NCBI GenBank assembly: GCA_963555995.3
Contig: OY821641.1
Span: 1,568,001-1,632,000, forward strand
DNA length: 64,000 nucleotides
Direction: 5' to 3'
Source of the DNA: Vicinamibacteria bacterium
Lineage (GTDB): Bacteria; Acidobacteriota; Vicinamibacteria; Marinacidobacterales; Marinacidobacteraceae
This document shows, piece by piece, positions 50,771-56,149 of the stretch. How positions within the stretch are numbered: position 1 is the first letter of the stretch; every line of letters starts with the position of its first letter. The translations under genes and the position numbers were made by a program. Under the pieces are notes generated by a model. That model was not told the origin of the DNA, did no database searches, and was given only the letters and a program-made list of their open reading frames with translations.

Positions 50771-51614
50771 AAAAGTCGCTCTGAAGCCGCGTGAGAGCCA
50801 CTACGTGGCGGGGCTCGCTCCCGAAGAGCCGCAGGTCCGGCACCGGATGATCCCGACGGCGCAGATCCATCCCAATCCCGATCAGCCGCGCCAGCGCATC
50901 GGGGCGCTGGAGCCGCTCGCCACCTCGATCCGCGACCAGGGCATCCTCCAGCCGATTCTGGTCCGCCGCCTGGGTCCCAAGGACTTCCAGATCATCGCGG
51001 GCGAGCGGCGCTATCGCGCCGCGGTACTCGCCGGGCTGCGCGAAGTGCCGTGCGTCGAACGGGAGGCCGAGGCGGGGGACGCGCTCGAGTTGGCCCTCGT
51101 GGAGAACCTGTTGCGGGACGACCTCTCCGCCTTCGAAGAGGCTGCCGCCTACGAGGGGCTCATCCGGGAGCATGGACACACCCACGACTCGCTCGCCCGC
51201 CGGGTCGGCAAGGGACGCACGTCCATCACCGAGACCCTCGCCCTCCTGAACATACCGGAGGAGATCCGGGAACTCGCCCAGGCCTCCGGGATCGTCTCCC
51301 GCCGCCAGTTGCTGCGGGTGGCCCGCGAACCGAATGCGGAAGCCATGCTGGCCGCTGTCCAGCGGCTCGCCCAGGGGATCGGGGAGCCGGCGCCCAAACG
51401 CCCGAAGGGCAGGGGAGAGCGCGCGCGGCCCTTCGTCTTCCGCTACGCCCCGAAAGACGGTCCTTTCCGTCTGCAGTTGACCTTCCGCCGCAGCGAGGTC
51501 GAAGAGGCGGACGTGGTGGAGGCGCTCCGAACCCTGCTGCGGCAGCTCGAAGAGGCGAGCGACGATGTCGGCGCGCCGACATCGGACGCAAGCGACAGCG
51601 AATCAAAGAGTTAG
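50745..51614 (+). CDS. parB: ParB/Spo0J family protein
   Basis: PNPDQPR, GILQPILVR, IIAGERRYRA, ENLLRDDL, HTH. Confidence 0.9.
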   Translation: MSKRTGLPEKVALKPRESHYVAGLAPEEPQVRHRMIPTAQIHPNPDQPRQRIGALEPLATSIRDQGILQPILVRRLGPKDFQIIAGERRYRAAVLAGLREVPCVEREAEAGDALELALVENLLRDDLSAFEEAAAYEGLIREHGHTHDSLARRVGKGRTSITETLALLNIPEEIRELAQASGIVSRRQLLRVAREPNAEAMLAAVQRLAQGIGEPAPKRPKGRGERARPFVFRYAPKDGPFRLQLTFRRSEVEEADVVEALRTLLRQLEEASDDVGAPTSDASDSESKS

Positions 51615-51693
51615 ACCGGGTATCGGTCAGTTCTTCCGGTATCGCCGGTCGAATGCCGGACGATTTCCGGGACGCCACAATAGAATGCCGCGC

Positions 51694-52266
51694 ATGTCCC
51701 GATTCTCAGCTTCCGCACTCTTGGCAGCCGGTCTGGCCACCGGTCTCGCCGCCACCGCCGGGTCCGCGCAGGACACCGACACGCCGACCGTGAAGGTCGG
51801 TGACCCGGCCCCCGATTTCGAACTCGAGGACGCCCACGGCGCCTCGTACCGTCTTTCGGAACTGCTGAAGCGCGGCCCGGTCGTCCTGGAGTTCTTCCGG
51901 AGCGGGGGTTGGTGACCATTCTGCATTGCGCAACTCGGCGAGTTGCAAGGATCCCTGGCTGAGTTCGAGGCGGCGGACACGACCGTGCTCGGCATTTCGA
52001 AGTACGGGACCGGGGAGACCCTGACGTGGCTCTCGAAGAACGACTGGTCCTTCCCGATCCTGGTGGACGGAGGCCCGGTCATCCGCGAGTACGGCATCCC
52101 CAACCCGGATCACGACGGGACGGACCGGGAAGGCATACCCCATCCCGCGACCATCATCGTGGATCCGGACGGTGTCGTCCGTTTCGTCAACGTCTGGGTG
52201 AACTACCGTGACCGCACGGCGCCCAACGAGATCCTCGCCGAGATCTCCCGTCTCGGGGGGTCCTGA
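51694..52266 (+). CDS. Exported AhpC/TSA (peroxiredoxin-like) selenoprotein, UxxC motif, Sec at TGA 51913-51915
   Basis: Read-through gives VGDPAPDFEL...GPVVLEFFRSGGW-U-PFC...HPATIIVDPDGVVRF, one 190-aa thioredoxin-fold protein; signal peptide; SECIS-like hairpin follows. Confidence 0.88.
51916..51950 (+). promoter_or_regulatory. Putative bacterial SECIS element
   Basis: Stem gcaactc/gagttgc (51930-51946) with G-starting loop ggc 21 nt after the UGA. Confidence 0.75.
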
Positions 52267-52298: not shown

Positions 52299-52835
52299 AT
52301 GAAACGCCGTCTCACGCTGTCCGCCCTGCTGTTGGCCGTGTCCGGCGGTCTTGCCGCCGGTCAGGCGCCGATGATTCCCGACTGGGAGAACGCGGCGAGG
52401 TTCGAGCTGGTGGCCTCGCAGTCCCCGGTCCGTCCCGGCGACCGCCTCGAAGTGGCGGTGGTCGCGGAACTGGACGCGGGGTACCACCTCTACGGCCCCG
52501 AAGAGGCCTTCCCGACCGCCACCGTGGTGGAACTCGTCGAGGGAGGAGCCTTCGAGAGCGGTGAGCCCGCCTATCCGCCGCCGATCCGGCGGGATCTTTC
52601 GGGACTCGGGGAATACGACCTCTACGAGGGGACGATCGCCATCCGGATCCCGGTCACCTCCGTTCGCGAGCGGGGCCGGTCCGCGGACGCCGAGGTGCTG
52701 GTCCGCTACCAGCTCTGCACGGACAACGCCTGCAGCGCGCCCACCAGCACCACCCTGGAGCTGTCGCTGCCGACCGCGAGGGCCGGGGCCCCGGTGAAGG
52801 CGCTGCATTCCGAGATCTTCGGGGAATCGCGATGA
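52299..52835 (+). CDS. Exported DsbD N-terminal (alpha) domain-like protein
   Basis: SD AAGGAG; signal peptide; GYHLY, YPPP, YEG, YQLCTDNACSAP Cys pair; alternative start 52266. Confidence 0.8.
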   Translation: MKRRLTLSALLLAVSGGLAAGQAPMIPDWENAARFELVASQSPVRPGDRLEVAVVAELDAGYHLYGPEEAFPTATVVELVEGGAFESGEPAYPPPIRRDLSGLGEYDLYEGTIAIRIPVTSVRERGRSADAEVLVRYQLCTDNACSAPTSTTLELSLPTARAGAPVKALHSEIFGESR

Positions 52836-53317
52836 GTCGCGTGGTCCATACCTGCCACGCCCGGGTCGTCAAGGAGGCCGGTCCGGTCCGGCAGGCCTTC
52901 CTCGAGGACTTCGAGGCGCCCGTCCGTTTCGGCGTCCACAGCGGGATCGCCGCGTTCTACGGGGTCACCCCGGCGGAGGAGCTGCCGGCGACCCTCGACT
53001 ACGTGGTGGCCGCCACCGGCGGTTGAATGGTGGGTACGTTCGGGCGGGCGCTCGAAGTACGCGGCATTCCGAGCCAGCCGGATCGGCTTTCGGCCGATAT
53101 CGAGGGCGACATTGTGGACGAGAACGGGGTCATGGCGCTGCGGGCCATCCGCATCCGGTACCGGGTGGCGTTGCCGGCCGGCAAACGCGAAGAAGCGGAA
53201 CGCGCGCTTCGCTTCCATGAGCGCGGCTGCCCCCTGGCCAACACCCTGAAGGACGGCGTGGACATCACGTATACGGCCGACTTCGAAGAACTGGACGGCG
53301 CGGGCGCGGCTGGATGA
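52832..53317 (+). CDS. OsmC/Ohr-like selenoprotein, Sec at TGA 53024-53026
   Basis: Read-through gives TLDYVVAATGG-U-MVGTF...FHERGCPLANTL, placing Sec at the first OsmC Cys with the second Cys intact; SECIS-like hairpin follows. Confidence 0.82.
53027..53060 (+). promoter_or_regulatory. Putative bacterial SECIS element
   Basis: gtac-g-ttcgggc [gggc] gctcgaa-gtac stem-loop; loop starts 19 nt after the UGA and begins with G. Confidence 0.7.
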
Positions 53318-53832
53318 GCGACCCGGCGTCGGCGATCCGGGCGCTGATGCGCCGGGCGCCGCAACTGGTGACCGTCGTGACCGCCCGTGGTCCGGACGGG
53401 CCGAGGGGAATCACCGTCAGTTCCTTCACTTCGGTGAGCCTCGACCCGCCGCTGGTGCTCGTCTCGATCATGAATTCGGCCCGGGCGCACCCCGCCATCG
53501 CCGCGGGCGCTTTCCGGGTGCACCTGCTGGCGTCCGACCAGGCCGATGTTTCCGGGCACTTCGCCAAACCCGGGCTCGACGCGAACACCCAGTTCGGAGG
53601 CCGGTTCGCCGAAGCCGTGGAGGCGGGCGGAACGGAGGATCCGCCCCGGATTCCCGGCTGCATCGGCTGGCTCCGCTGCGTGACCGCCGGGTCCCATGCC
53701 GAGGGCGACCACACGCTGTTCATCGGAAGAGTGACGGAGGGCAGGGTGGAGCGGGCCGAGGCCGCTCCCTTGCTTTACTACGACCGGGGCTATCGCGAAG
53801 TGGGAGGCGTCCCGGGTGATTCGCCGGGCTGA
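53314..53832 (+). CDS. Flavin reductase (HpaC/RutF family)
   Basis: VTVVT, GITVSSFTSVSLDPPLVLV, GDHTLFIG, PLLY. Confidence 0.92.
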   Translation: MSDPASAIRALMRRAPQLVTVVTARGPDGPRGITVSSFTSVSLDPPLVLVSIMNSARAHPAIAAGAFRVHLLASDQADVSGHFAKPGLDANTQFGGRFAEAVEAGGTEDPPRIPGCIGWLRCVTAGSHAEGDHTLFIGRVTEGRVERAEAAPLLYYDRGYREVGGVPGDSPG

Positions 53833-55584: not shown

Positions 55585-55723
55585 CCGTTCCTGATGGTAA
55601 CCTTCCCCGGTTACTCCTCTTTCGACGCGCTGAGCGGGCGGCGCCAGACCGGTGGCCATCCCACCCGCCGTCCTCCGAAACGAAGTCCCGGCCGCGAGCG
55701 GCGGGCACGAGGCAACATTCGGC

Positions 55724-56149
55724 ATGGCGGACAACGTAGCGGCCCCCGAGGCCCCGATTCCCGGCATTGACTACGAACCGAAGCCGGGCGGGAGCGAAAA
55801 CGCCGGGCAGAAGGCGAACGGCTCGGCCCCGGCGTCCTATTCGATGCTCGAGCCCCGGATGAAGGCCATCTACGGCCAGTTCTACAAGGAAACCTACTTC
55901 TCCGAGAACAAGCACCTCGATCCGAAGGTTCAGGAACTGATCGCCCTCGCCTGCTCCCTGATTGCCCAGTGCGAGGGCTGCCTCGACGGGCACGTGAAGA
56001 AGGCCCTCAAGCTCGGGGCGACCAAGGAAGAGATCAGCGAGGCCATCGTGATCGCCATCGGCATCAACGCCGCCGCGATCGTGGACCAGACGGACCGCAC
56101 GGCCACGCGCCTCGGGCTGAACCACTTCCCGGCGAAGGTCCGCCTGTAG
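55724..56149 (+). CDS. Carboxymuconolactone decarboxylase/AhpD-like protein
   Basis: LDPKVQELIALA...QCEGCLDGH...GATKEEISEA. Confidence 0.85.
   Translation: MADNVAAPEAPIPGIDYEPKPGGSENAGQKANGSAPASYSMLEPRMKAIYGQFYKETYFSENKHLDPKVQELIALACSLIAQCEGCLDGHVKKALKLGATKEEISEAIVIAIGINAAAIVDQTDRTATRLGLNHFPAKVRL

Follow-up and report, generated by a model that had tools for sequence, protein, structure and literature searches.

Selenoproteins of the peroxiredoxin-like (Prx-like) UxxC family have been known since about 2005. Table 1 of PMC13188914 enters the family as 'Prx-like thiol:disulfide oxidoreductase, PF00578, UxxC'. It appears also in PMC1794560, and Prx-like selenoproteins are among the commonest in the GOS data ('Prx-like 1', Table 2 of PMC2398784). 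A related pathway is that of Caulobacter, in which the reduction of the exported protein PrxL (cd02969) depends on ScsB and PrxL has no detectable peroxidase activity (main text of PMC3322552). For organisms in which the ScsB alpha domain is free, the same text proposes an order leading from CcdA through an exported thioredoxin-like protein to the separate alpha domain, the gamma piece not having been found, and states that CcdA reduces CcmG homologues.

The gene described here lies in a window of 64,000 nucleotides, the whole stretch of DNA that was analysed. It shares with the Prx-like UxxC family the PF00578 domain, the UxxC motif, an in-frame UGA followed by a SECIS element and the existence of Cys homologues, whereas it differs in that its subfamily is confined to one order, has a probable signal peptide and is regularly accompanied by a DsbD-alpha neighbour. 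Taken alone it is a further, ordinary member of this known family; the new aspect is the association of the Prx-like protein with DsbD-alpha, as a pair here and as a fusion in relatives. Neither the pair nor the fusion has an entry in the review table (2026) of PMC13188914 or a corresponding term in the main text of PMC12013277, and a literature search covering result listings and the starts of abstracts returned no description of the pair. Like Caulobacter PrxL, the protein is probably exported, Prx-like, devoid of the Prx catalytic residues and encoded near a DsbD-family reductant. However, PrxL has Cys and depends on a complete ScsB of three domains, whereas the present protein would carry selenocysteine (Sec) and is accompanied by a free DsbD-type alpha domain and a membrane-only CcdA; the two are likened by their position in the pathway, which does not imply that they belong to the same subfamily. 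In the wider comparison with DsbD, CcdA and ScsB systems and their TlpA, ResA and CcmG partners, the CcdA-type membrane domain, the C-x4-C alpha domain and the probably exported thioredoxin-fold protein are all found in the genome, but as three separate genes at two loci and with Sec in the thioredoxin-fold member.

The in-frame TGA and the read-through product

The gene occupies 51694..52266 (+). As the preliminary description had proposed, the ORFs 51565-51915 and 51943-52266 form one frame in which TGA 51913-51915 is the sole break. Read-through from ATG 51694 yields a product of 190 aa containing FFRSGGW-U-PFC, with U as residue 74. The W-U-P-F-C motif spans 51910..51924 (+), with the putative Sec codon at 51913-51915 and a Cys codon at 51922-51924. 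The read-through product matches the AhpC-TSA family of Pfam (PF00578) with 97.9 bits against a cut-off of 26 (E 5e-28).

Searches of 41 genomes (the own genome and 40 relatives) gave a match in every one, and the relatives with orthologues all belong to Candidatus Marinacidobacterales (Acidobacteriota, Vicinamibacteria). The TGA is present in all of the 30 best orthologue loci, the own genome included, which argues against a sequencing error; these loci reach down to ~51% identity, and in each the frame stays open for 114-116 codons beyond the TGA. In 33 loci drawn from a genome collection of largely the same organisms, TGA occupies the column in 32 and a stop in the 33rd. A contig from a second sample (X2) covers the whole stretch with nine differences, none of which affects the TGA. 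Among the best 120 of 258 database matches, 20 represent one or the other half of genes of this family, while the remaining 100 are full-length homologues, all of which carry Cys at the U column, where the orthologues have TGA. The orthologue is interrupted by a frameshift in two assemblies (L087 in genome G032 and L096 in genome G030), through either assembly error or decay, and the OsmC-like gene described below is partial in G030. In one close full-length relative of 183 aa with a signal peptide (P0261), the UxxC motif is replaced by SGSWSSQC, which places Ser at the Sec/Cys position.

The genome contains selA, selB, selD and the gene of tRNA-Sec (selC), each above its curated cut-off. The tRNA-Sec has a UCA anticodon, a long arm and a G before CCA, and selB was detected in 38 of the 41 genomes. 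SelD (L011, G000 C1 ~2910700-2913000, -) is of the Cys type (CGGC, no Sec) and stands behind an NADH-dehydrogenase-like (Ndh) domain as a fusion. General recoding of TGA was rejected because TGA ends 994 of the 1,536 long ORFs and is the main stop codon of the genome.

The bacterial SECIS hairpin at 51930..51946 (+) has a perfect 7-bp stem (GCAACTC-GGC-GAGTTGC), and its GGC loop at 51937-51939 begins 21 nt after the TGA, in agreement with the first account of the locus. The SECIS model given in the text of PMC13188914 calls for a loop of 3-9 nt with G in loop positions 1-2, a stem of 4-16 bp, a spacing of 16-37 nt and an MFE of at most -7.5; the hairpin agrees with all five constraints, having a 3-nt GGC loop, a stem of 7 bp, a spacing of 21 nt and an energy of -7.7 kcal/mol when folded alone, a value that marks it as weak by itself. 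Counted as perfect stems of at least 7 bp with a G-led loop of 3-5 nt starting 16-24 nt downstream, such hairpins follow 381 of the 66,976 TGA trinucleotides of the genome (0.57%). Four longer stretches folded around the hairpin were about as stable as their shuffles (z of 0.19, -0.22, -0.86 and -0.41), and their minimum-energy folds are alternatives lacking the hairpin. Folding stability was set aside as a proof of SECIS, being not significant against shuffles. In one stem pair both partners are synonymous codon positions; this pair is A-U in 19, G-C in 10 and G-U in 1 of the 30 loci, and the A-U form requires the codons CAA and TTG, whose genome-wide usage is 6.5% and 4.2%. In ten hand-picked loci 98.6% of the cells pair and the covariation score was reached by 1 of 500 shuffles, although these counts come from non-independent kin and possibly reflect one or two events only.

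That the TGA is a true stop, the gene being split or dead, or that it encodes some other residue, is very improbable: its use as the main stop codon, the storage of the halves as separate database proteins and the unexceptional local folding speak for such a reading, but the codon is fixed down to ~51% identity, lies between two stretches of undisturbed reading frame, falls exactly at the Cys column of the homologues, is followed by a stem pair never mismatched in 30 loci and is matched by a tRNA-Sec with the expected UCA anticodon. Sec is very likely inserted at UGA 51913, as judged from comparative sequence evidence.

ATG 51694 is the likely start. A -10-like hexamer, TAGAAT, at 51681..51686 (+) ends 7 nt upstream of it; TAnnnT recurs 5-11 nt before an in-frame ATG or GTG in 28 of 30 orthologues, and at exactly 7 nt in 16 of 16 from the own genus, suggesting a leaderless transcript that starts at 51694. 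The spacing of this box disfavours the alternative starts 51565 and 51685, and a sigma-70 scan gave no full site upstream of the gene. No Shine-Dalgarno sequence is present at 51681-51694, where the box stands 7 nt before the ATG. Across the 2,969 ATGs of the genome, -10-like boxes peak at 6-7 nt (17-18 vs. ~4 at other gaps), and some leaderless mRNAs are suggested for the genome. Rfam and tRNA scans of the 64-kb window gave no match.

The first 25 codons, 51694..51768 (+), encode a probable Sec-pathway signal peptide. Its features were recognized by eye and by hydrophobicity: the N-terminus MSRF, a hydrophobic core and cleavage after AGSA, before Q. A similar N-terminus, with a basic start, a hydrophobic core and a small-residue cleavage site, was seen by eye in 28 of 30 orthologues, whose N-termini diverge in sequence yet keep the signal pattern. 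The signal peptide would probably carry the selenoprotein to the periplasm.

Fold and family of the probable selenoprotein

The gene had been described as encoding an AhpC/TSA-like protein. The fold bears this out, but the catalytic residues of peroxiredoxins are absent, and thus 'Prx-like thiol-disulfide oxidoreductase' is a more fitting name than peroxidase. The structure model predicted from an alignment of 22 orthologues has a pLDDT of 89.6 (40 for a single-sequence prediction) and places U74-P-F-C77 at a helix start within a thioredoxin fold. The solved folds nearest to this model are the BCP/PrxQ and AhpE peroxiredoxins (2cx3, 5epf and 1xxu; TM ~0.8, 23-27% identity). In the alignment to 2cx3, Cys77 occupies the column of the peroxidatic Cys, U that of the Prx Thr/Ser, Arg69 that of the Pro and Pro151 that of the catalytic Arg. 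The selenoprotein thus has RSGGWUPFC where these peroxiredoxins have PxxxT/SxxC, and lacks the catalytic Arg. Pro151 (52144..52146, +) is invariant in the 22 orthologues aligned; we take it to be the thioredoxin-type cis-Pro.

No NCBIfam model reaches its cut-off with this protein; the SelL-related model (NF040769) gives 41.4 bits vs. 120, ResA 38.9 vs. 170 and PrxU 27.4 vs. 270. The nearest full-length homologues among the matches listed are Cys proteins of ~220 aa named 'peroxiredoxin-like family protein', with 31-42% identity and the same motif, which reads GGWCP[YF]C in 97 of the 100; presumably they correspond to the CDD label PRX_like2. They have Cys instead of Sec and are longer, with an N-terminal extension instead of a signal peptide in the seven inspected. 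A class-wide sample of 201 genomes gave no strong matches to the gene outside the order Candidatus Marinacidobacterales.

The DsbD-alpha neighbour and the fused family

The preliminary description had not mentioned the adjoining DsbD-alpha gene or the second gene with an in-frame TGA. Directly downstream, 52299..52835 (+) encodes a free DsbD N-terminal (alpha) domain protein (PF11412, E 6e-12) with a probable signal peptide and a C-x4-C motif (CTDNAC) at 52716-52733 (+). It is followed by an OsmC-like gene at 52832..53317 (+; NF041052, below cut-off), which contains an in-frame TGA at 53024-53026 (GG-U-MVGT), a distal Cys133 and a SECIS-like hairpin at 53039..53056 (+; stem of 7 bp, loop GGGC, spacing of 19 nt from the TGA). 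This TGA stands at the same column in 30 of 30 loci, and a match was found in 39 of the 41 genomes, each with an internal TGA; the OsmC-like gene probably encodes a second selenoprotein, in which no signal peptide was seen. A flavin reductase gene (53314..53832, +, PF01613) overlaps the OsmC-like stop and belongs to the same gene string. About 3 kb downstream, at 55655-56149 (+), lies a small CMD/AhpD-family gene (CxxC), also found near the locus in L098; an ORF resembling a thiamine-diphosphate dehydrogenase E1 follows it.

Comparisons of 33 loci, mostly from the genomes of the 41-genome search, showed that the DsbD-alpha gene is directly downstream in 32, that in 30 the OsmC gene is no more than 4 kb away and that a ParB gene upstream and the flavin reductase gene downstream are found in all 33. 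The exception is the orthologue at L142, which has no DsbD-alpha gene within 4 kb. Because the whole neighbourhood is kept in the 33 loci, the adjacency is partly plain synteny among kin. In two other families of the order, however, extra genes sit between DsbD-alpha and OsmC and displace the latter, while the Prx-like and alpha genes still abut, often with overlapping stop and start; since the extra genes enter after alpha, the link between the Prx-like protein and alpha is the tighter one. A second, weakly DsbD_N-like exported protein with C-x4-C (ACTDRLC) is encoded at L101:1375-1962 (+), beside a beta-lactamase-like gene.

In 5 of 12 loci with weaker matches (L102, L103, L104, L106 and L111), relatives encode a single chain composed of a signal peptide, a Prx-like domain (RSADW-U-P[YF]C) and DsbD-alpha, and these genes have a 7-bp hairpin with the loop likewise 21 nt after the TGA. 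A query built from a four-sequence alignment retrieved 2,190 such proteins at E<=1e-20 among 7,996 scored. Among the best 120 of these (P0140-P0259), 46 are complete and carry W-C-P-[YF]-C, 67 lack everything up to and including the motif, the form expected of a gene split at a TGA, and 7 have other forms; the alpha C-x4-C is kept in 119. No NCBIfam model scored above cut-off for this AhpC-TSA + DsbD_N family, and a fusion match, mostly with an internal TGA, was found in 14 of 151 genomes of the phylum, one of which, the unpublished G063, was used for this count alone. The two proteins of the window match the two halves of the fusion profile (E 8e-27 and 9e-10, two-sequence search). They nevertheless fall outside the fusion clade, being two genes that have ~33% identity to the fusions and branch apart from them in the trees of both domains; in these trees the deep branches are long and the basal support is weak (83/89). 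The fused family, as a separate lineage, serves as an analogy and not as the ancestor of the window gene, and a recent split of a fusion finds no support in either tree. The free pair and the fusions are, on this phylogenetic evidence, a parallel association. When the alignment of the window gene itself was used to look for longer fusions, none of the 16 matches contained DsbD-alpha (7,992 candidates scored).

As a stand-in for the pair, a naturally fused Cys protein (P0189, alignment of 46 rows) was divided into its two domains, and their dock scored 0.79, compared with 0.00 for the best of three controls. Of 157 solved complexes 116 attain the mark applied, as do 2 of 215 mismatched pairs; these figures are rough for a run with its own alignment. 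The runs share at least 85% of their contacts with a partner pLDDT of at least 87, one of the three scoring 0.31. Complexes of DsbD-alpha of a like kind have been solved, and since the dock joins two parts of one chain, an intrachain signal or likeness to such complexes could pass the mark. The predicted interface comprises alpha residues 209-222, 284-293 and 333-338, uses the alpha S-x4-PG-x-R loop, which also occurs in the free alpha proteins (25 of 33 loci parsed), and the helix beside the CxxC, and excludes the alpha cysteines 311/316. Thus, the pose is not one of electron transfer, and the model supports association of the two domains rather than electron transfer between them.

The only DsbD_TM gene of the genome encodes a 243-aa membrane-only CcdA with both cysteines kept and adjoins genes for a cytochrome c and a TlpA lipoprotein. 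DsbD_TM matches were found in 40 of the 41 genomes; two of the short genes were inspected in full, and ccdA has a TlpA neighbour both here and in the relative G031. In four relatives from one genus the DsbD_TM match lies in a frame of 577-578 aa, a full alpha-beta-gamma DsbD in the one inspected, and the Prx-like/alpha pair is retained. The pair is therefore not simply a substitute for DsbD, and the idea that it replaces DsbD is weakened.

Candidate selenoproteins and possible routes of electrons

A coding-potential survey gave 110 in-frame TGA sites in the genome, of which nine were taken by eye as likely Sec, a list that may be incomplete; two survey candidates, at 2089063 and 2390446, turned out to be ordinary adjacent genes. 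Seven of the Sec-like sites lie beyond the two of the window, and three of these genes score above NCBIfam cut-offs. The candidates at L147, L149, L150, L151 and L152 (G000) include a MerB-like protein (FT-U-ANM), a CYCXC protein, two tandem rhodaneses, one of which is a lipoprotein, a Trx7/PDZ protein and an AhpD-like protein. A further candidate is an exported peroxiredoxin with a TGG-U motif and the conserved Arg (L148:530-1156, G000 C1 1183397, -), which has a match with TGA in 28 of the 41 genomes; the loop of its best hairpin, ACA, contains no G and so departs from the SECIS consensus. Six of the nine candidates have export or membrane signals by eye. Outside the window's family, a candidate selenoprotein sensor kinase joins membrane segments, a Prx-like W-U-PFC domain, a GAF-like region and a histidine kinase in one frame (L107:1746-3839 (-), L108:844-3003 (+), L109, L110 and L112). 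It has an in-frame TGA with a SECIS-like stem. Of 55 genomes of the order, 21 gave matches, although none from the window's family did, and 19 of the 22 matches have an internal TGA; Table 1 of PMC13188914 has no such entry, and a literature search at the abstract level gave nothing relevant.

A functional partnership between the selenoprotein and DsbD-alpha, in either direction, is rather likely. Our main reading, to which we give a probability of roughly 0.45, is that the gene encodes an exported UxxC Sec disulfide reductase that is recycled via DsbD-alpha and fed by CcdA. SelB would recognize the hairpin and decode UGA 51913 as Sec, and the signal peptide would deliver the chain to the periplasm. 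In proteins of the TlpA/ResA type, the first residue of the motif attacks and the second, a Cys, resolves the mixed bond; correspondingly, Sec74 would attack oxidised targets, one candidate being the exported TxxU peroxiredoxin, and Cys77 would resolve the mixed bond. It counts against this likeness that the closest solved structures are those of BCP/AhpE peroxiredoxins and not of TlpA. The C-x4-C of DsbD-alpha may then re-reduce the oxidised U-C bond with electrons that would pass from cytoplasmic thioredoxin to the membrane-only CcdA and on to alpha, probably through the neighbouring TlpA lipoprotein. The direction from alpha to the selenoprotein is itself put forward tentatively, at somewhat less than an even chance. 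We infer by analogy that the proposed reductase would hold the position of PrxL in the Caulobacter pathway.

Electrons could also flow in the opposite direction, the selenoprotein being the missing DsbD gamma, reduced by CcdA and in turn reducing the free alpha, which would then serve other periplasmic thioredoxin-fold proteins; DsbD would thus work in three pieces. The order from CcdA to a thioredoxin-like protein to a separate alpha is that proposed in the main text of PMC3322552, which also has CcdA reducing CcmG homologues; the genome has CcdA only, and the fusions would act as soluble gamma-alpha shuttles. However, ccdA has its own TlpA neighbour in this genome and in G031, relatives with a full DsbD retain the pair, and the fold is Prx-like rather than that of a minimal thioredoxin. 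We regard this direction as unlikely.

The selenoprotein may instead be a Se-dependent periplasmic peroxidase without the Prx triad, which DsbD-alpha would at most recycle. Selenolates are reactive toward peroxides, the best structural and sequence matches are BCP/AhpE peroxiredoxins (TM ~0.8), and an OsmC-like gene belongs to the operon. This role is less probable still: none of the Prx residues Pro, Thr and Arg is present, the genome already encodes an exported TxxU peroxiredoxin with Arg, and PrxL lacks detectable peroxidase activity according to the main text of PMC3322552. To a similarly low degree, the protein may be a genuine exported selenoprotein that has no functional tie to DsbD-alpha and is its neighbour by inherited synteny, as the flanking ParB and flavin reductase genes in 33 of 33 loci, the origin of all orthologues from one order and the different lineage of the fusions would allow. 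Against this, the Prx-like and alpha genes stay abutting in other families that insert genes after alpha, and a large family combines these two domains in one chain.

With the recycling of the selenoprotein by DsbD-alpha as the preferred reading, the Prx-like UxxC family gains a named candidate partner in the free DsbD-alpha encoded beside it, a proposal strengthened by the many proteins in which the same domains are fused. Because such genes are stored as two database fragments, at least nine candidate selenoproteins are hidden in this 3.8-Mb genome. The pairing is also relevant to the proposal that three separate proteins gave rise to DsbD and can do its work. In its furthest form, which we consider doubtful, marine Vicinamibacteria would possess a selenium-based three-piece DsbD, made of CcdA, the UxxC selenoprotein as gamma and the free alpha, that feeds an envelope redox network made up largely of selenoproteins and comprising the exported TxxU peroxiredoxin, the Trx7/PDZ protein, the rhodanese lipoprotein and the CYCXC protein. 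If true, the selenoprotein would be the free gamma piece that was predicted, and not found, by Cho et al., with the Sec/Cys fusions, a family lacking annotation, as the corresponding gamma-alpha form throughout the Acidobacteriota.
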